Part shown: piece by piece, positions 55,282 to 64,000 of the stretch
Layout of the letters: each line of letters opens with the position of its first letter
How positions within the stretch are numbered: position 1 is the stretch's first letter
Assembly: GCA_965222615.1 (NCBI GenBank)
Contig: CBDCUI010000008.1
Coordinates: 480,001 to 544,000 of the forward strand
DNA: 64,000 bases
Reading direction: 5' to 3'
DNA from: Gammaproteobacteria bacterium
Lineage (GTDB): Bacteria; Pseudomonadota; Gammaproteobacteria; UBA4575
The notes under the pieces: model-generated
The model's database searches: none
Told to the model about the DNA's origin: nothing
Seen by the model: the letters and a program-made list of their open reading frames with translations, nothing else
Translations under genes and position numbers: made by a program

Positions 55282-56229
55282 TCAAGGCAGTTTGGCTTCT
55301 AAATCTTCGACATTTACTTTAGGGTGGGCTTGCTTGAATTTTTCCAATTGTCGAGCGGCCTCGGCATAATCTTTTCTGGCGATCAACTTCTCAATCATTA
55401 ACAACCAGTCTCCTACAGGTATAGGAGCAAAATCAGTATCTTCTTTAGATTCAGCTCTGTCATCATGCAGCATGGGCTCTTGTTGTGCATCCGATTCGAA
55501 ATCTTTTCTAGATCTTTCTCGCGACATCGTTTCGGTATTGCCATTTGTACTATATGTACCTTCTTGAACAGTGGATGGCTGTTCATTAAGTATAGCTCTG
55601 GGAGAATCTTGCAAGGGTTCTAAGGTTCTGTTTGGTCTTGACGATTTAACCTCAGACTTAGATTTCATACTGGGTGCTGCAACAGATGGTTGTTCAGCTG
55701 GAACTTGTTCAAGTTTATTATTCCGTTGATACTCATCTAGCTGTCGAGATTTTTCTAATGTCGGTGTTGGTTGTGATACTGTTTCCTGGTCAAGTTTTTT
55801 TCTTGCTTCTAATTTCTCTTGCGCCGCATTAGCAGGTGTTTGAGTTTCGGCACGACCAGATAATTCTTCTGTCTCTGTCGCAATGCCATCAGTAGGCATA
55901 GAAATTTCATCAATGGGTGCATTGAAATCACCAGCCCCGCTTTTATTCTTTGTCGTAGTTTGCATATCAGATTCACTCGAGGGAATGGGTGGAATTTCTA
56001 ATTGTTCAGGGCTTTGATCAAGTTGTACCAGTAGTGCAAAAACTAACACCACACTTGCGGCCAACGATAGAGGCACTTTCCAACCACCACCAAAATGACT
56101 GCCACCACGTTTTGATGATTGTTTGTTGGCGGCATACTCTAAAATCTCTTGATCAAGCTCAGCAGAAGGGGCTTCATTTGCGCCTTTTTTATAAAGCTGT
56201 TTTAAAACTTGATCGTCTTGAGAATTCAT
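55282..56229 (-). CDS. Putative anti-sigma factor (SbrR-like architecture)
   Basis: Follows the ECF sigma gene. EAPSAELDQEIL, TM WKVPLSLAASVVL, low-complexity periplasmic part, helical C-terminus EAARQLEKFKQAHP. Confidence 0.7.
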   Translation of the reverse strand: MNSQDDQVLKQLYKKGANEAPSAELDQEILEYAANKQSSKRGGSHFGGGWKVPLSLAASVVLVFALLVQLDQSPEQLEIPPIPSSESDMQTTTKNKSGAGDFNAPIDEISMPTDGIATETEELSGRAETQTPANAAQEKLEARKKLDQETVSQPTPTLEKSRQLDEYQRNNKLEQVPAEQPSVAAPSMKSKSEVKSSRPNRTLEPLQDSPRAILNEQPSTVQEGTYSTNGNTETMSRERSRKDFESDAQQEPMLHDDRAESKEDTDFAPIPVGDWLLMIEKLIARKDYAEAARQLEKFKQAHPKVNVEDLEAKLP

Positions 56230-56252
56230 ATCTTTAGTTCAATTTTACATAT

Positions 56253-56816
56253 TTAATTTATTAGAGCAGCTTTAAGTTTGTTTTTAGCATAACGCAAACG
56301 GCTTTTAGCCGTTTCAGGATTTACCTTAGTGATTTCAGCTATTTCATTCACATTCATGTCTTGTTCAAAATGTAACAACGCTGCTTCTTTTTGGCTTGCG
56401 GGAAGTTCATCAAAGGCATGCATGAGTTGTTTAGTTTTTTGTTTCAAAGTGAACTCATCTTCAGGTAATGCCAAGGTATTTGACGTGTTAGTAAGTTCAT
56501 AATTCATTTCGGCTTCCTCGAATTCAACCACCTGAGCGGGTTTACTTTTTCTGTAGTAATCGACCAGCGTATTGTGAGCAATCGTAAACAAATAAGTTGT
56601 AAACTTTGCTTTGGGTTGATATCGAGTAGCACTGTTAATCAATTTAATCCATACCTCTTGATAAAGTTCTTCAGATTGCGGTTCGTCACTGCAATGCTTT
56701 ATAAAGTAACGATACAATGCATCTTTATATCTGCGATATAGTGTCTCAAAGGCTGCTTGATCTCCTTGCTGGTATTGCAGCATTAAGGCTTCGTCAGATA
56801 CATGCTTGTCCTCCAT
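56253..56816 (-). CDS. ECF sigma-70 factor
   Basis: GDQAAFETLY, EELYQEVW, FTTYLFTIAHN, region 4 EIAEI...ETAKSRLRYA. Confidence 0.95.
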   Translation of the reverse strand: MEDKHVSDEALMLQYQQGDQAAFETLYRRYKDALYRYFIKHCSDEPQSEELYQEVWIKLINSATRYQPKAKFTTYLFTIAHNTLVDYYRKSKPAQVVEFEEAEMNYELTNTSNTLALPEDEFTLKQKTKQLMHAFDELPASQKEAALLHFEQDMNVNEIAEITKVNPETAKSRLRYAKNKLKAALIN

Positions 56817-56874
56817 AGAATAAGCAGACTAACCATGCCAACAAGGTAACGCAATACCGTTTGTTGCCTCTATA

Positions 56875-56902
56875 TAAACGAAAAAGTTTACATAAAGGGT
56901 TA
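56875..56902 (-). promoter_or_regulatory. Candidate autoregulated ECF promoter
   Basis: Minus strand TAACCC-N16-CGTTTA, about 60 bp upstream of the sigma start; fits the AAC/CGT ECF promoter pattern. Confidence 0.55.
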
Positions 56903-56956
56903 GTCCCAAGCGTGATTCTCACTACCGTTTATCTGATAGCATGCTAGGATATTTAA

Positions 56957-58120
56957 ATGGCGCTGTGCAGAATATCCAAACGCCTTGAGCAGCTAGAGTC
57001 GTTTCACGTCATGAGTTTAATGGCGGAGGCAAAACAGCTAGCAGCACAAGGGCATCACGTTATACACATGGAAATGGGTGAGCCCGATTTTTCCACGCCT
57101 GAACCTATAGTAGAAGCAGGTATCGCAGCATTACGTGCAGGCATAACGCACTATACCCCTACACTGGGACTGCCAGCTTTACGCGAAGCCATTGCAAATT
57201 TTTATCAAGAAGAATATGGCGTTACCGTATCTGCCGAACAGATTGTTATTACGCCTGGATCCGCCTTGGCATTACAACTGGTTTTAAATGTAATGATATC
57301 GGCTGGAGACCAAGTTGCGATTGCAGATCCTGCTTATCCAAGCACACATAATTTAGTTCGCTTACTGGGTGGTGTGGTATTGCATATGCCCGTGAGCGAA
57401 GCCTCGTCATGGCAACTTAATCTTGAATTATTAGAGCAAAATTGGAATGAATCCGTTAATGCAGTATTAATAGCAAGCCCCTCTAATCCAACTGGCACCA
57501 TACTCACAAATGATGAATTACAGAAAATTGTAGACTTTTGTGCAGAGAAGGGTGTATTTCTATTGGTCGATGAAATTTATCATGGACTAGTGTACTCGCA
57601 TGCACCTCGTACTGCAGTTGATATCAATGAAAATACATTCGTTATAAATAGCTTTTCGAAATTTTATGGCATGACGGGTTGGCGAGTGGGCTGGATTGTT
57701 GCGCCAAAAAGATATTTAAAAGAAATAAACAAACTTGCGCAACATACATTTTTAGCGGCCCCTACACCAGGACAATATGCAGCACTCGCAGCTTTTCAAA
57801 AAGACACAAAAGAGATTTTGCTAGCAAGACGTGAAGAATTTAAACAACGACGGGATTACTTAGTCAAAGCGCTCAAATCAATAGGTTTTGGAATTCCAGT
57901 AAAACCCGAAGGGGCCTTCTATATCTATGCTGATTCGTCAGCATTTTCAGATGATAGCTACGAATTTGCGCGCAAGGTATTAACAGAAAAACATGTCGCA
58001 TTTACACCAGGGATTGATTTTGGAGTAAACGGTGCTAAACAACATGTGAGATTTGCCTACACCACCAATCTAGAAAATCTAAAAATAGGTATTGAACGTT
58101 TAGCTGAAATAAAAGCTTGA
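56957..58120 (+). CDS. PLP-dependent aminotransferase class I/II
   Basis: GEPDF, SPSNPTG, DEIY, SFSKFYGMTGWRVG, GAFY. Confidence 0.95.
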   Translation: MALCRISKRLEQLESFHVMSLMAEAKQLAAQGHHVIHMEMGEPDFSTPEPIVEAGIAALRAGITHYTPTLGLPALREAIANFYQEEYGVTVSAEQIVITPGSALALQLVLNVMISAGDQVAIADPAYPSTHNLVRLLGGVVLHMPVSEASSWQLNLELLEQNWNESVNAVLIASPSNPTGTILTNDELQKIVDFCAEKGVFLLVDEIYHGLVYSHAPRTAVDINENTFVINSFSKFYGMTGWRVGWIVAPKRYLKEINKLAQHTFLAAPTPGQYAALAAFQKDTKEILLARREEFKQRRDYLVKALKSIGFGIPVKPEGAFYIYADSSAFSDDSYEFARKVLTEKHVAFTPGIDFGVNGAKQHVRFAYTTNLENLKIGIERLAEIKA

Positions 58121-58431
58121 ATGCATCCCAATAGATGCACTGATAAAAAAGTTTAACAAAAGAAAATAAATAATTATTAAAAGTAAGTTAATGATCTAAA
58201 TAATTAAAAAATAAAGAAACACAGCAATGACAAAATTTTGACACTTAACAAAACTGAACATTAATTATTCAGTTTTATAAAAAAACGTACAACAAACAAA
58301 CAACTTGAAATAACAACTTCATACAAAACAAGTGTAGTTACACAATAGAAACAAAAATAACTATTGAAATATACATTTAGACCGATATAGTTAAATCAAT
58401 AATCAAAATTAAGAAATTTTGGGGAGAATTT

Positions 58432-60030
58432 GTGGGGATTCCGGGGCAGAGTAAAAATAATCTAATTCATTTTTTTCGTTTAATTTTTTTGGTTTCAACT
58501 TTGTTCCTAGCTTATGGAGCATGTGTTCACGCTGGTGTTGGTCAATGTGTGTGCACATCAAATTGTGGCAATGTTCCATCAATAAATGCAAGTTCACCTG
58601 GGCAATGTTTTCCCTATTTTACTGAAGCATATAACAATACTTTTGGAACAGACTGTACTCACTCGCCAGAATTGATTGATAGTAATCACAATCCAAATGA
58701 AAATTTCACTTGGGATACATATGGCATGCATAACGTAGGTGGATCGCATGTAATTTGTCAAAATCCTGGTGGTGGTATGGTTCAATTCAGATACTGCTCA
58801 AATAACACTCAAAATTACCCAGAGTGTGAAACAAACCAAGTTTCACTTCCCAGCACATTAGGCGGGAAACAACCATCCTGCCCAAGAGGTAACCCAGTAC
58901 ACCCAGCCACAGGAAATAAGTTTCAAACTGAAACAGATTTTGCAAATACAGGTGAACTTTCGTTTACACGTTATTACAACAGTTTAGGAGAAGAAGAATA
59001 TGGGCTAGGCAAAGGCTGGAGTGCACAATATCACCAACATTTACTTATCTCATCGAGTATTTTAATAGTCCTAAATAACCAAGATGGACAGAGTCACGCA
59101 TTTAATTGTTCCTCTATAGGTGAATGTGAAAAGCTTGCAGATATAAAGGATTTACTAGAAAAAACTGCTACAGGCTTCCTGCTAACAACAGAAGATAATG
59201 TTGTTGAATCGTATGATCTTAATGGCAAACTTATCTCTATCACCTCGTTGTCAGGCCAAACTCAGACTTTAAGTTACAACAGCACGACAGACTTACTTGA
59301 GACCGTAACTGATAACAATGGCAGAATAATTAGTTTTACCTACGATACTCAAGAACGCCCTGCAACTATCACCGATCCAGATGGTGAGGTTTATACCTAT
59401 GACTACGATACCAATAACAACTTAGTTAAAGTTACCTACCCAGACAATACCCCAGGAACCAATACCGATAATCCAACCAGACAATATCAATACAACGACA
59501 CCAACTATCCAAATCACCTCACCGACATTATCGATGAAAATGGCAACACCTTTGCCAGTTTTGGCTACGACACCCAAGGCCGAGCCATCTTTACAGAACA
59601 TGCCAATGGAAATGAACGAATAGATCTAACCTACAACGCAGATGGTACTACTACAGTAACTGATTCACTCGGAGCAACCAACACCTACACCTATGAAATT
59701 ATGTTCGGGGTCCCCCGAACCTCAACCATAACTGGCGGACAGTGCGGAAGTGGATGTACCGGAGAAGGACAAGCACAAACCTATGATGCAAATGGATTTC
59801 TCGCAAGCCGCACCGACTTTGAAGGCAACATCACAACTTTTATTAATAACAGCCGAGGCTTACAAACTTCTCGAACCGAAGCCGTCAGCACCCCCGAAGA
59901 AAGAACCATCACCACCGAATGGCATTCCGATTTTAGATTGCCCACCAAAATAACCGAACCGGGTAAAGAAACCATCTTTACTTATGACACACAGGGCCGA
60001 CTCCTGTCGCGTGCGGAAAGAGAGATTTAA
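58432..60030 (+). CDS. Secreted YD/Rhs-repeat protein 1: Cys-rich variable N-domain + DUF6531-like + YD repeats
   Basis: Signal-like stretch ending ACVHA; CPRGNPVHPATGNK; RYYNS; YD repeats; ends YDTQGRLLSRAEREI. Confidence 0.9.
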   Translation: MGIPGQSKNNLIHFFRLIFLVSTLFLAYGACVHAGVGQCVCTSNCGNVPSINASSPGQCFPYFTEAYNNTFGTDCTHSPELIDSNHNPNENFTWDTYGMHNVGGSHVICQNPGGGMVQFRYCSNNTQNYPECETNQVSLPSTLGGKQPSCPRGNPVHPATGNKFQTETDFANTGELSFTRYYNSLGEEEYGLGKGWSAQYHQHLLISSSILIVLNNQDGQSHAFNCSSIGECEKLADIKDLLEKTATGFLLTTEDNVVESYDLNGKLISITSLSGQTQTLSYNSTTDLLETVTDNNGRIISFTYDTQERPATITDPDGEVYTYDYDTNNNLVKVTYPDNTPGTNTDNPTRQYQYNDTNYPNHLTDIIDENGNTFASFGYDTQGRAIFTEHANGNERIDLTYNADGTTTVTDSLGATNTYTYEIMFGVPRTSTITGGQCGSGCTGEGQAQTYDANGFLASRTDFEGNITTFINNSRGLQTSRTEAVSTPEERTITTEWHSDFRLPTKITEPGKETIFTYDTQGRLLSRAEREI

Positions 60031-60033
60031 TGT

Positions 60034-61623
60034 ATGAAAAAAAGTGCTTTACCTAACTTAAGTACATTAATACTGAAATCAGTTAGGCAACTACTTGTAC
60101 TAATTTTATTTTTATCAAGTACTACAAGTCTTGCTGCTGAGGTTTGGACACGAAGTGGGGGAATGGGTTATGGGTATTTTCCAACGGCTGCTGCATACTG
60201 CCAAGTATTTCAACAACAATTTTGTCACACAGAATGTAATCCATTCCCAATGACATGTGCGAGTCCTGACTGTAGCGCAGTGGGATGTACCGTTCAATAT
60301 AGAGTAACTCCTGCCACTAGTTTTTTGGTTGCAACTGAAATTATTTTAAAGGGGCCTTTACCAGCTGGAGAAACCATCAACAAAACCGAAAAAACCTTAG
60401 GCTCCCCTGCACCAGAGCAATGTGTGGGTAATCCAATTGATATTGCAACGGGAAACAAATATCAAAAAGAAACAGACTATGTTGATTCAAGAACCAGCCA
60501 AATTGTATTTGAACGCTACTACAACAGCATCGCGATAGATGATTCGCTTACAGGTAATCAATCATCACGTGCACTTGGGAACAACTGGAAACACACCTAC
60601 CAAAGAAGCATCTTTAACTCTGATGATGGTATTGATGAAGGCGTCGCGATTGCCTATCGACATACCGGTCGAGTTGAAAACTTCTTCTTGAATACAAGTA
60701 CTAATCAATGGGTACCCGATGCTGATATCACTAGCAGGCTTATACAACTAACGGATAGCACAGGAGATAAAATCGGTTGGGAATACACTACTGAACAAGA
60801 TGTAGTAGAAACCTACAATGCAACTGGTGTATTGCAAGCCATAACAAATAGAAACGGAGTTATACAAACACTCCACTATGATCTCGTGAGTGGCCTACTT
60901 ACTTCAATAACTGATTCATATGGCAATTCAATGTCATTCACCTATGACCTCAACGATCGTATACAAACCATGACCGATCTGGATGGCAAGTTATATCAAT
61001 ACACCTATTCACCTAATCTGATTCAAGTCGTGTATCCAGATGAGACACCTCAAAATAACGTAGATAACCCTATACGTGTCTACCATTACGAAGAAGCAAA
61101 TAAAACACTTCTTACAGGCATTACCGATGAAAATGGAAACCGATTTGCTTCTTGGGATTATGACGACACTACGAATAAAGCAATCCTCAGCGAACACAAC
61201 AGTGGGGTAGATAGGGTAACGGTAACGTATAACAATGATAGTACTACCACGATAATAGATGCGTTGGGCGCAAGTGACACATTTACGTTCCTAGATGTAC
61301 AAGGTGTAAGTCGTGTTTCAAATGTCGCAGGAGATCAATGTAATGTATGTGGAGCACAAGCACAGGCCTATACATATGACTCAAATGGATTTGTCGCTTC
61401 AGAAACCGACTTTGAAGGCAATCTCACTACCTTCATAAACAACAGCAGAGGATTACAAACAAGTAGAACTGAAGCGGTCGGCACACTCGAAGAAAGAACC
61501 ATCACCACTGAATGGCATCCCGATTTTAGATTGCCAACCAAAATAACCGAGCCAGGAAAAGAAACAATATTCACTTATGACGCTCAGGGCAGATTGTTGT
61601 CACGTACGGAAAGAGAGATTTAA
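60034..61623 (+). CDS. Secreted YD/Rhs-repeat protein 2
   Basis: Signal ending SLA; CVGNPIDIATGNK; RYYNS; ends YDAQGRLLSRTEREI. Confidence 0.9.
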   Translation: MKKSALPNLSTLILKSVRQLLVLILFLSSTTSLAAEVWTRSGGMGYGYFPTAAAYCQVFQQQFCHTECNPFPMTCASPDCSAVGCTVQYRVTPATSFLVATEIILKGPLPAGETINKTEKTLGSPAPEQCVGNPIDIATGNKYQKETDYVDSRTSQIVFERYYNSIAIDDSLTGNQSSRALGNNWKHTYQRSIFNSDDGIDEGVAIAYRHTGRVENFFLNTSTNQWVPDADITSRLIQLTDSTGDKIGWEYTTEQDVVETYNATGVLQAITNRNGVIQTLHYDLVSGLLTSITDSYGNSMSFTYDLNDRIQTMTDLDGKLYQYTYSPNLIQVVYPDETPQNNVDNPIRVYHYEEANKTLLTGITDENGNRFASWDYDDTTNKAILSEHNSGVDRVTVTYNNDSTTTIIDALGASDTFTFLDVQGVSRVSNVAGDQCNVCGAQAQAYTYDSNGFVASETDFEGNLTTFINNSRGLQTSRTEAVGTLEERTITTEWHPDFRLPTKITEPGKETIFTYDAQGRLLSRTEREI

Positions 61624-61691
61624 TGTTGTGCAATCACTTTATACTAACTTCATATTACTCACAATAAAAAATAACTGAATGGGAGACTATT

Positions 61692-63386
61692 GTGAAGAGA
61701 TTTGAAAATCCCATCTGGGAACATTCTTCCTCGAATAATAGAGAATTATCAGACACTCAGGACAATATACTTAAAGTATGTGTCCGAGTTATTATTTTTT
61801 GGCTTTTAGTTTTAATGCTATTAGTATCTTATGCAGATGCAGAAATAGCAGGGTGTAATTCAATATTCGATGACGCTTCGTTTGCGGAAGGTGTAGTAAG
61901 AACATTCGGTACAAATGTTAATAACCCGTTTGTAAACATAACGCATAATGAACCACCAATAGTATGTACAGCAGTTGATGGTCAGGGAGAGTATTGTGGA
62001 GATCACCCAATAACAGGGGACACTGCGTGTGTTGCACATAGATATAAATGTCCAAATGTATTTAATGTGTGGGTAGGCCCTGGTTCGCAGCACTGTCCTT
62101 CTGGTGACCCTTGTCCACCTGGGTGGGAAGATAATGGCGTAGGCGGATGTTCGTATGCAGATACAAACATCCAGTTCCCTAAGGAGAATGGCATGCCTGA
62201 AACTGCCTGTTTAGGCAACCCAATAAACCCTGCCACAGGAAATAAATTTCAAATTGAAACTGATATTACCTCATCAGATAGATTAACGTTTTCACGATAC
62301 TACAATTCAATCAAAGACGAAGAATTAGGAACTATAATAATTGAAGGAAAATGGACATTTGATTATTTTCAAAGTTTGAAAATCTACACAAATGTAACTA
62401 CAAATTTATATTTTGCATTTGTTAACAGACAAGACGGGAAAAAATACCAATTCACATGTTCGGAATTACCTGGACCTTGTAGTAGTGATACAGATGTAAA
62501 ACTAACTCTAGATAAAACAATCAATGGGTACACGCTACTGACTGAAAATAACATTACAGAAAATTACGATACCGATGGTAAATTGCTATCAATTACTGAT
62601 CTATCGGGGCGAACACAGACACTTAGCTATAACGTGGGCAATGGACTGCTTGAAACAGTAACAGATTTCTTTGGCAAAACACTTGTATTCACACACGATG
62701 TAAATAAACGGTTGGAAACGGTTTCTGATCCTGACGGGGACGTATATACATACATATATAACGCTACGACTGGAAATTTAGAAAGTGTCATTTATCCAGA
62801 CGATACGCCAGGCACCAGCACAGATAACCCTAAAAGAGAATATCTATATAATAACCCTAATTTTGATTCGCTCTTAACAGCTATTATAGATGAAAATGGG
62901 AATATATTTTCAGAGTGGGCTTATGACGCGCAAGGAAGAGCAGTCATGTCTAAATATGCAGGTGGGGCCGAACAAGTAAATATAACATACAATTCTAATG
63001 GTACTGTGAATGTTACGGATTCTCTAGGTGCAAGCAATATATATTCATTTGAAGTACATGCACACTCAAATAAATTATCTTCTATAAGTGGCGGACAATG
63101 CGGCAGTGGCTGTTCAAATCAAGGCCAAGCACAAACCTATGATGTGAATGGCTTCTTAGCCTCACGCACAGACTTTGAAGGCAACGTCACCACATTCATA
63201 AACAACAGCCGAGGCTTACAAACCTCACGTACCGAAGCGGTAGGCACACCCGAAGAACGCACGATCACTACCGAATGGCATCCGACATTTAGACTTCCAA
63301 CCAAGATTGCTGAGCCTGGAAAAGAAACCCTCTTTACTTATGACGCGCAGGGGCGTTTGTTAACACGTTCTGAAAGGGAGCTATAA
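61692..63386 (+). CDS. Secreted YD/Rhs-repeat protein 3
   Basis: GGGAG RBS at 61681; hydrophobic stretch ending YADA; CLGNPINPATGNK; ends YDAQGRLLTRSEREL. Confidence 0.9.
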   Translation: MKRFENPIWEHSSSNNRELSDTQDNILKVCVRVIIFWLLVLMLLVSYADAEIAGCNSIFDDASFAEGVVRTFGTNVNNPFVNITHNEPPIVCTAVDGQGEYCGDHPITGDTACVAHRYKCPNVFNVWVGPGSQHCPSGDPCPPGWEDNGVGGCSYADTNIQFPKENGMPETACLGNPINPATGNKFQIETDITSSDRLTFSRYYNSIKDEELGTIIIEGKWTFDYFQSLKIYTNVTTNLYFAFVNRQDGKKYQFTCSELPGPCSSDTDVKLTLDKTINGYTLLTENNITENYDTDGKLLSITDLSGRTQTLSYNVGNGLLETVTDFFGKTLVFTHDVNKRLETVSDPDGDVYTYIYNATTGNLESVIYPDDTPGTSTDNPKREYLYNNPNFDSLLTAIIDENGNIFSEWAYDAQGRAVMSKYAGGAEQVNITYNSNGTVNVTDSLGASNIYSFEVHAHSNKLSSISGGQCGSGCSNQGQAQTYDVNGFLASRTDFEGNVTTFINNSRGLQTSRTEAVGTPEERTITTEWHPTFRLPTKIAEPGKETLFTYDAQGRLLTRSEREL

Positions 63387-63389
63387 GAC

Positions 63390-64000
63390 ATGAATAAAAT
63401 TCGAAAATTAGATCAAATTATGTCTCTAATTTTTGTCTGTGTAACATTTTATTTTGGTACAACTAGTTTTTTATTTGCACATCAACCACCTTCTGCACCG
63501 AGTATTTGCATTGGTATGTTTTCGTCATGCAGCCCTGCAGCAAGGAGCACATGTTTTTCTGATTCTAGTTTTGTCCCAGAATGTGGTGCGATTATGAATG
63601 GTCCAGGGCTTTGTAGTGGGACAAACTTTTACCAATATAGACATACAAGTTTTGGGCATCTCCACCAATATGGATGCATTGATACTGGCGGGTGTTCTAC
63701 AAGTGAATATGCTGATGGTTTTGGAGCATGTGTAGCTGATACCCAACTAGATTTAGTAAGAACCTTGGGTGATCCAGAAGGATCATGTCCAAGAGGTAAT
63801 CCAATTCATGCTTCTACTGGTAATAATTTTGAAACTGAAATAGATTATTCCTTAAGTAATGGTGGTTTAAATTTCATTCGCTATTACAACAGTCTTTCTC
63901 AAAATGATGTTGACCTTGGAATAAAATGGACAGCGTCTTATTTCCAAAATCTTTCTGTTAACTTTTTTTTCGTCACAGTTAATCAAGCAGATGGTGGAAT
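63390..64000 (+). CDS. Secreted YD/Rhs-repeat protein 4 (runs off window; missing from the ORF track)
   Basis: ATG 63390, open to 64000: MNKIRKLDQIMSLIFVCVTFYFGTTSFLFA-HQPP...8 Cys...CPRGNPIHASTGNNFETE...FIRYYNS...LGIKW. Confidence 0.88.
   Translation, partial: MNKIRKLDQIMSLIFVCVTFYFGTTSFLFAHQPPSAPSICIGMFSSCSPAARSTCFSDSSFVPECGAIMNGPGLCSGTNFYQYRHTSFGHLHQYGCIDTGGCSTSEYADGFGACVADTQLDLVRTLGDPEGSCPRGNPIHASTGNNFETEIDYSLSNGGLNFIRYYNSLSQNDVDLGIKWTASYFQNLSVNFFFVTVNQADGG

Follow-up and report, generated by a model that had tools for sequence, protein, structure and literature searches.

The right end of a 64,000-nt stretch of gammaproteobacterial DNA (the window, G000:C8:480001-544000, G000 being the source genome) carries a tandem array of four genes, called N1-N4 in gene order, which encode N-terminal parts of Rhs proteins. 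The array and the genes that follow it just beyond the window (locus L010) probably specify an Rhs cocoon made of two polypeptides exported by the Sec route, in which alternative N-terminal halves (N-halves), each bearing a different external head, would be mounted on a single toxin-bearing C-terminal half (C-half). This reading is drawn from the gene sequences of the locus and its relatives, and from structural modelling of the two halves.

Four adjacent genes, all on the plus strand, fill positions 58432-64000 of the window in the list of open reading frames (ORFs), and the last of them, interrupted by the window end, is complete in the genome at 520 aa. As anticipated in the initial annotation, the four have one layout. 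Each starts with a putative signal peptide, judged by eye (charged start, hydrophobic run, small residues at -3/-1), which is followed by a Cys-rich domain, by the motifs C-x(1-2)-GNP...TGN and RYYNS, within which GNP, TGN and RYYNS are invariant in the alignment of N1-N4, and by YD repeats. DUF6531 and RHS_repeat in N1-N3, and DUF6531 in the window-cut N4, were found by Pfam above cut-off, and nothing else, an Rhs core included. PF05593 (YD/RHS repeats) scores 54.8-80.5 bits in N1-N3, and TIGR01643 also matches. The N-terminal domains had been described as unrelated segments of some 95-125 aa; they measure 97-123 aa, contain 7-9 Cys and are only 18-28% identical in pairwise comparisons. The YD bodies are 37-55% identical, the last ~95 residues 80-88%, and all four proteins come to the same stop point, ending in ...GRLL[ST]R[AST]ERE[IL] and a stop codon. 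The genes are separated by 3, 68 and 3 nt, which leaves no space for a small ORF, such as an immunity gene, between units. Relatives of the N-terminal domains were sought by BLAST among 120 database homologues, all ORFs of the loci described below and the full-length relatives, and the single match (N1 with P0003) is 32% over 114 aa, with E = 1e-6.

The C-half, expected past base 64000, lies where it had been predicted: a 944-aa gene begins 2 nt after the stop of N4. In this protein the hidden Markov model (HMM) of RHS_repeat (PF05593) finds 10 stretches (217.6 bits), and the Rhs core is recognized both by PF03527 (56.2 bits) and by TIGR03696 (Rhs_assc_core; 76.3 bits, cut-off 32.5). The core is followed by a C-terminal end of ~150 aa with 9 Cys, and the gene by an ORF for a 99-aa membrane protein; neither product has a family match in Pfam or NCBIfam. 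NCBIfam has no name for the N-terminal domains either, and a feature search of the ESM Atlas gave no lead for the N3 domain, and for the toxin end one lead at 0.77, under the usable range. A search of the whole genome with N2 retrieved N1-N4, the single C-half and two distant full-length rhs frames (1572 and 1474 aa), and the frame after N4 is the only C-half-like one in G000. The locus thus likely carries, after four N-terminal units, one toxin end and one likely immunity gene. The statement that no toxin or immunity function is present is correct for the window, and does not extend to the locus, since both would be encoded directly downstream (G000:C8:544955-548095).

Among 41 genomes (G000 and 40 relatives), matches were found in four, G000, G001, G007 and G026. 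Full-length versions occur as open frames of 1297-1817 aa in G001, of the same genus, and in G007, of the same family. Residues 1-520 of N4 align to residues 63-551, and residues 59-690 of the C-half to residues 563-1189, of a 1707-aa Rhs protein of G007, and four further full-length relatives show equal colinearity with N4 plus the C-half. At the junction, ...LTRTEKDL of the full-length proteins is linked by about 9 residues to FTYDSNGNVLTINGPRTD; in G000, ...LTRTEREI is followed by a stop codon, and FTYDANGNVLTIDGPRTD comes after the new leader of the next gene. Shell, plug and core, continuous in the full-length kin, are in G000 not on one chain, as four units stop after ...ERE[IL] and the C-half is a separate frame. 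By these alignments the G000 array is a split gene rather than a truncated one. A programmed frameshift or readthrough fusing N4 to the C-half, whose frame is open for 15 codons upstream, was considered and dropped, because N1-N3 stop at the same place ahead of another N-half, and because C-halves found elsewhere have signal peptides of their own. In G001, short ORFs starting inside the Rhs core region lie 3' of full-length rhs genes (L025:1880-2578 and L025:12069-12545). They resemble classical C-terminal orphan pieces, and the same family therefore shows both modes of diversification.

That the units are decaying pseudogene fragments of former full-length rhs genes is suggested by the occurrence of full-length versions in the same genus and family, and by IS30-like and IS200-like transposase genes downstream. 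The state of the genes makes this hardly credible. No frameshifted continuation follows the units, the next gene beginning 3-68 nt after each stop, and frames, starts and stops are intact in N1-N4, which stop at the same residue, as do most of their homologues (see below). When tails (the last 93 codons) and bodies of N1-N4 were compared apart, in pairs, the tails showed proportions of synonymous differences (pS) of 0.50-0.69 (synonymous rate dS 0.8-1.9) and ratios of nonsynonymous to synonymous rates (dN/dS) of 0.07-0.14. In the bodies pS is saturated (0.71-0.84) and the proportion of nonsynonymous differences (pN) is 0.26-0.41. A low dN/dS at high dS means that the near-identity of the tails is held at the protein level, and is not due to recent copying. 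Judged from these values, all four N-halves are under strong purifying selection, and their frames have been open over a long time.

Nor is the array an assembly artefact of the genome record, since, among the contigs of four sequencing runs that were compared, an independent contig of 28,323 nt covers positions 1-7842 of L010 without difference, though its run may come from the same sample. All units are also present in a second sample. Among the runs listed as containing the stretch, none is an RNA run. Two variants were seen in these contigs. In run X1, at depth 3, the N3 tail (L010:5152, window 63152) is joined, with four letters between, to the matching site of the N1 tail (L010:1801, window 59801), which could reflect recombination, duplication or chimeric assembly. 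In a contig of run X4, at depth 2, one base is missing in the N1 leader (L010:470, window 58470), which may be a sequencing error or stem from a strain in which N1 is disrupted.

The position of the cut is conserved well beyond G000. A database search with N4, covering proteins of 286-910 aa, yielded 481 proteins at E <= 1e-10, of which the best 120, including the window's own four, were analysed by placing the last 70 residues of N4 on each of them by BLAST. Within 0-8 residues of the last position of N4 end 98 of these 120 (94 of the 116 that are not the window's own), and 97 of 120 within 0-3 residues. The homologous units share one end, rather than stopping at random. The other 22 extend 9 to 300 residues further, six of them ending together at +197. 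These point to another conserved position of the cut, which lies ~183-199 residues farther into the shell and at which proteins end in ...NRxQQxTGxxxx. Loci with this second site (L097:1-8940, and also L072, L077, L081, L086 and L101) have tandem N-units, at least three in L097, and a signal-bearing downstream piece.

Loci with related genes were fetched from genomes (six) and metagenomes (77, from the best 80 of 260 confirmed stretches), and 82 of them were classified; L030 was left out, being a G001 locus already included. In 44 of the 82 a gene runs through the site without a stop, 21 have N-halves with a true stop at the site, and in 6 the N-halves stop at the second site. After the 35 true-stop N-halves the next gene within 200 nt is a C-half (with or without an additional domain at its front) in 15 cases, and another N-half in 13 (in one at 344 nt); 2 precede a signal-bearing ORF without identity, cut by the contig end, and 4 are unreadable at a contig end. 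Further arrays ending at the same residue, a search for which had been suggested in the initial annotation, or at the second site, were found: at least four units in L083, at least three in L043 and in L097 (second site), two in L042, and at least two each in L050, L049, L047, L101 and L102. The arrays which can be traced to their end (L042, L050 and L097, in addition to G000) all close with a C-half. As in the window, identity rises from the N-terminal domain to the body and the tail in L083 (16-22%, 49% and 85-94%) and in L042 (20%, 47% and 86%). C-halves elsewhere have a plain signal peptide just ahead of the first YD strand, e.g. ...LLGFTVNA followed by DQTTSYTYN....

Some loci depart from this layout. 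The C-halves at L027:9242-13912 and L033:11245-15006 carry, after the signal peptide, several hundred extra residues before the first YD match, a front part which starts, by eye, in the manner of leucine-rich repeats. Possible three-piece versions are found at L077:1991-4212, L081:11941-14573 and L086:2917-10839, where a signal-bearing middle piece of ~490 aa ends just before the core region (...YLGDxPVAVxQM) and is followed by a signal-bearing ORF, which in L086 encodes 2125 aa with immunoglobulin-like repeats.

The N-halves might be stand-alone secreted or surface proteins, e.g. adhesins built on a partial YD sheet, which do not need the C-half and lie next to it by shared ancestry only. In favour of this, every N-half starts with a signal-like leader and differs from the others in its Cys-rich domain, one N-half of L099 has no C-half, and the usual end is not always buried, since the N-half at L032:1-1848 continues beyond it for 234 residues with another domain. 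A signal-bearing C-half starts 14 nt after the latter. We consider this improbable. A C-half directly follows in 15 of 35 cases and another N-half in 13 of 35, and the three traced arrays close, like that of G000, with a C-half. The cut, kept within 0-3 residues in most of the best homologues, would leave such proteins with an open third of a spiral shell and a plug with nothing to plug. Folding of the two halves, moreover, joins them edge to edge.

In these predictions residues 57-660 of the C-half (alignment of 12 rows) were folded with residues 131-520 of N4 (47 rows). The alignments were custom-made for this analysis, so that the benchmark counts, in which the mark set for the fold score is reached by 116 of 157 solved complexes and by 2 of 215 mismatched pairs, are only roughly valid. 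The score of N4 with the C-half is 0.76 (0.76, 0.75 and 0.76), that of the best of three controls 0.00; between runs, contacts agree to at least 96%, and the pLDDT (predicted local distance difference test) of the partner is at least 84. Continuation of the beta-sheet from the EREI tail, suggested in the initial annotation, appears in the model: residues 57 and 59 of the C-half touch residues 511-514 of N4, and farther on the C-half makes contact again at intervals of about 22 residues, the spacing to be expected for the next turn of a spiral sheet. Of the 66 positions of N4 predicted to lie in contacts, 40 are invariant across the four units, compared with 112 of the 324 remaining positions (Fisher p = 1.5e-4); for the body alone the numbers are 18 of 41 and 63 of 254 (p = 0.014). 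Constraints of the fold could by themselves produce this invariance. As modelled, the halves fit as one continuous shell; binding is not implied. Colinearity, the sole C-half of the genome, the conserved cut, the arrays found elsewhere and the fold all support the proposal of a split shell whose N-halves share one downstream C-half.

Bodies and tails of the N-halves differ in history. In a tree of 81 N-parts, N1-N4 and two full-length genes of G001 and G007 form a starred group (96), in which N3 is sister to the 1707-aa gene of G007 (99). The split/full label needs at least 6 changes on this tree, 3 of which are forced by starred branches; fission, fusion and recombination are not separable by such a count, because bodies and tails do not share one history. 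When bodies and tails were treated separately, the body of N3, whose nearest kin is a full-length Rhs of another genus, grouped with the G007 gene and P0007 (97), N1 with P0003, P0004, P0005 and P0008 (97), N4 with a G001 gene (83), and N2 fell in another group (97). The tail tree, poorly resolved, puts all ...EREI-type tails together (88.9), and the four full-length tails together (88). A single clade of the eleven ...EREI-type bodies is rejected by the approximately unbiased (AU) test (p = 3.7e-5), for groups named after the tree was seen. Applied to the tail data, the test does not reject a grouping of N3 with the G007 gene (p = 0.30). In our reading, split and fused genes have traded bodies by crossing-over close to the point where body meets tail.

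These data bear on the strongest competitor of the proposed reading, according to which only N4 works with the C-half, and N1-N3 represent N-terminal modules displaced in one recombination event after another. They would be kept as a stock of heads which exchange between the conserved tails can move up to the C-half, in a mirror image of the C-terminal orphans of rhs loci. The bodies do fall in different sublineages, with full-length genes of other genera (N3 with the 1707-aa gene at 97-99 in the Shimodaira-Hasegawa-like approximate likelihood ratio test, SH-aLRT), and the tails together (88.9); classical C-terminal orphan pieces of the same family exist in the sister genome G001; and a weak back-joint of the N3 tail to the N1 tail is seen at depth 3 in the contigs of one run. 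On the other side, the frame of every unit is intact, and each has its own start, preceded by a Shine-Dalgarno-like site, and its own signal-like leader. With synonymous sites saturated, dN/dS is ~0.1 in the tails and pN far under pS in the bodies. The units form one tight, co-oriented block with gaps of 3-68 nt and no plus-strand terminator-like site between genes and, being separate genes, require no rearrangement for their expression. We consider a store of spare heads unlikely, though it deserves more credit than the other alternatives.

Coordinates of the locus are collected in Table 1. The promoter-like site listed is the best one upstream of the array. In the region 33 such sites were found against 32.0 expected from shuffles, thus with no excess, and terminator-like sites likewise show none; the only plus-strand terminator-like site lies inside N1. 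Shine-Dalgarno-like GGGAG or AGAGAG precedes every downstream start, and in the tightly packed genes falls inside the E-R-E codons of the preceding gene. Upstream of the array (window 55282-58120) lie two ORFs of 315 and 187 aa on the minus strand and one of 387 aa on the plus strand, by eye an anti-sigma/extracytoplasmic function (ECF) sigma pair and an aminotransferase-like gene. Close copies in the same order occur in the sister genome (L030:15993-18346), near a single full-length rhs gene which sits on the opposite side of the three-gene block with respect to the array in G000. Past the transposase genes, G000:C8:550345-551450 (L010:12345-13450) contains three small ORFs, of which the first two (80 and 101 aa) overlap and the third encodes 102 aa.

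Table 1. Features of the split Rhs locus (plain positions refer to the window, positions marked G000:C8 to the genome)
Feature	Position	Strand	Description
Promoter-like site	58364..58391	+	TTGAAA-16-TATAGT, 10/12 match to consensus; ~40 nt before N1
Shine-Dalgarno-like site	58421..58426	+	GGGGAG, 5 nt ahead of the GTG start of N1
N-half 1 (N1)	58432..60030	+	532 aa, GTG start; signal-like start, 118-aa domain with 9 Cys, DUF6531, YD repeats; end ...RAEREI
N1 conserved tail	59743..60027	+	last 95 codons; 81-88% identity to the other units; pS 0.50-0.66, dN/dS 0.07-0.14
N-half 2 (N2)	60034..61623	+	529 aa; signal-like start, 97-aa domain with 7 Cys, DUF6531, YD repeats; end ...RTEREI; starts 3 nt past the N1 stop
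N-half 3 (N3)	61692..63386	+	564 aa, GTG start; signal-like segment, 123-aa domain with 9 Cys, DUF6531, YD repeats; end ...RSEREL
N-half 4 (N4)	63390..64000 (ORF open at 63998+)	+	cut by the window end; complete in the genome, 520 aa, ending at window-equivalent 64952 (G000:C8:544952)
C-half	G000:C8:544955-547789	+	944 aa; starts 2 nt past the N4 stop; second candidate start at C8:545051
99-aa membrane ORF	G000:C8:547796-548095	+	hydrophobic; starts 7 nt after the C-half; likely immunity
IS30-like transposase gene	G000:C8:548432-549418	+	downstream of the 99-aa ORF
IS200-like transposase gene	G000:C8:549466-550158	+	downstream of the IS30-like gene

The solved proteins nearest by sequence profile are single-chain Rhs effectors (7q97 'Rhs family protein', 7pq5 Tre23, 8qja-8qjd, Tse15 and Tse5). 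According to passages of PMC8765631, in solved Rhs proteins an N-terminal plug seals one end of the cocoon, the part before the plug lying outside, and a C-terminal core seals the other end and cleaves at PxxxxDPxGL. The N-terminal domains of the array precede the plug, in the region which those passages place outside the cocoon, and a role as cargo, one of the two offered in the initial annotation, is thus unlikely. A YD spiral shell, a DUF6531-type plug and a C-terminal core are common to these effectors and to the present locus, the kinship being established by HMM; a variable C-terminal toxin and a downstream immunity-like gene would be further shared features. Here, however, the shell is spread over two genes, both halves bear signal-like leaders in place of PAAR or VgrG-binding parts, and diversity is N-terminal, in a tandem array with one toxin end. 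In TcB and TcC, as described in parts of PMC8765631 and PMC7264150, two chains jointly form one Rhs cocoon around the toxin end of TcC. A two-chain cocoon (here predicted), core and toxin on one half, and several versions of one half per partner are features which the systems would have in common. The cut is nonetheless different, as the N-part makes up ~1/3 of the shell and has no beta-propeller, and no Tc-type domain is found by Pfam in the N-halves. The variable partner, in addition, is the N-half and not the toxin half, and both halves look Sec-exported. The TcA family VRP1 had no match in G000, but the control matched nowhere either, so that this search is uninformative.

Jackson et al. 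in 2009, and later work, reportedly described C-terminal displacement and orphan rhs-CT/immunity cassettes at classical rhs loci. Like those orphans, the present units are tandem leftovers or alternatives in which a conserved segment stands beside a variable one, and recombination in the conserved segment is the likely engine. The polarity is reversed, with a variable N-terminus and a conserved 3' tail, and the units are complete genes, with starts and signal-like leaders, and no immunity gene per unit.

WapA-type Rhs toxins of Gram-positive bacteria are Sec-dependent according to a passage of PMC12704120, and resemble the present proteins in an export of Rhs toxins by signal peptide, independent of type VI secretion. 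WapA, in contrast, is there one polypeptide, of hosts without an outer membrane, and the passage describes no arrays of N-halves. Many YD-repeat genes are reported for mussel symbionts in PMC4612132, whose main-text passages, as far as consulted, do not describe the present layout. A full-text literature search found no published description of split, Sec-type Rhs genes or of N-half arrays.

Type VI secretion is not suggested by the gene content of G000. PAAR (PF05488) and TssC (PF05943) had no match in this genome, 99.8% complete; the controls matched in 3 and 1 of 14 genomes. The N-termini of the N-halves, too, depart from those of type VI-type Rhs proteins, as they are signal-like and give no PAAR match. 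The many Cys of the heads, and the 9 of the toxin end, suit proteins that fold in an oxidising compartment. G000 has a type II secretion cluster at C9:290213-296958, along with five secretin matches. Type II genes adjoin the split Rhs locus in 2 of the 82 loci, L027 and L099, and none were found beside the other 80; this is a hint, not a pattern. GspE-, F- and K-like genes and pseudopilin-like starts were seen there, at L027:142-7184 (minus strand) and L099:12116-17676.

Several observations weigh against the two-polypeptide cocoon. The tail is equally conserved in unsplit relatives, and its conservation alone is therefore no evidence of docking; tail conservation, and much of the conservation of the interface, are expected because the fold alone demands them. 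Single-chain Rhs and TcB-TcC cocoons have been solved, and the predicted complex may pass by likeness to them, so that it speaks for fit, not for binding. Signal peptides were called by eye or by a crude rule for a hydrophobic N-terminal segment, which 68 of 94 database N-halves pass, the 26 misses including fragments without a start and several that are positive by eye. The leader of the G000 C-half is atypical: it may begin at either of two starts, its hydrophobic run is short, and it lacks an Ala-x-Ala site. The first start is an ATG right after the N4 stop; the second, an ATG 96 nt further on with the Shine-Dalgarno-like GGGGAGAG 5 nt ahead, opens a signal-like peptide of 24 residues ending ...LLIA, then FTYD, and the leader could be an uncleaved anchor. 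The core motif (residues ~716-792, G000:C8:547100-547330) is SDSIGL...NSTRYIDLDGA, against a family consensus of SDPIGL...NPxxxxDPxGL. SxxxxDLxGA thus replaces PxxxxDPxGL, three fixed positions being changed and both aspartates retained; at the second of the two sites, related proteins of G001 and G007 show DQ and DN. In their bodies, N1-N4 are closer to other genes than to one another, and the AU test rejects a single clade of the four (p = 1.3e-8, for a group named post hoc), a scatter which also fits a store of displaced modules. One of the 35 true-stop N-halves, the second unit of L099, precedes an unrelated gene with no C-half after it, and L053 looks decayed. Finally, so large a particle would have to leave a Gram-negative cell, and its passage across the outer membrane, possibly by a type II system, is a guess.

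The sequences themselves show how the genes are laid out, their colinearity with full-length kin, the conserved cut, the pattern of selection and the recurrence of the layout at other loci. Export, assembly, interchangeability of the N-halves, the role of their heads and the outer-membrane route are what we infer. In the two-polypeptide cocoon, which we still consider the probable solution, each N-half would begin with a signal peptide and contribute an outer domain that varies between units and is rich in disulfides, together with the DUF6531 plug and about the first third of the YD shell. The single C-half would bear a signal peptide as well and supply the remaining two thirds of the shell, the closing Rhs core and a Cys-rich C-terminal toxin domain, and the small membrane protein encoded after it would be the likely immunity factor. 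Both halves would cross the membrane unfolded, by Sec, and assemble outside the cytoplasm into a closed cocoon, the beta-spiral continuing across the cut. N1-N4 would be alternative partners of one C-half, giving up to four versions of a toxin particle with different external heads, which would most likely serve in target or surface recognition. The array would have been built, and kept diverse, by recombination in the conserved tail beside the cut, and would mirror the swaps of C-terminal toxin tips at classical rhs loci.

A broader generalization may be ventured with reserve, its chances falling a little short of even. Combinatorial Rhs particles would form outside the cytoplasm, the cocoon self-assembling from two Sec-exported halves, and arrays of N-halves would provide interchangeable targeting heads for one toxin. 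Heads would be shuffled between split and fused genes at a conserved strand beside a preferred cut, an N-terminal counterpart of C-terminal displacement. Such particles would represent a second, independent origin of the TcB/TcC principle, apparently widespread in uncultured Gammaproteobacteria, with further cut sites and three-piece versions.

Rhs/YD toxins form a main class among the weapons of bacteria, and the shell is under study as a container for protein delivery. The family described here is large, with 481 database proteins at E <= 1e-10 in the length range of the N-halves. If the proposed reading is true, a natural shell is made from two exported pieces, the cut kept by evolution is a permissive split site, and the assembly step can be tested in vitro. 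The arrays of N-halves would show that targeting, and not the toxin alone, is the diversified part in some Rhs systems, and would open a way to study target finding and entry by Rhs toxins that do without type VI secretion, a process which is poorly understood.

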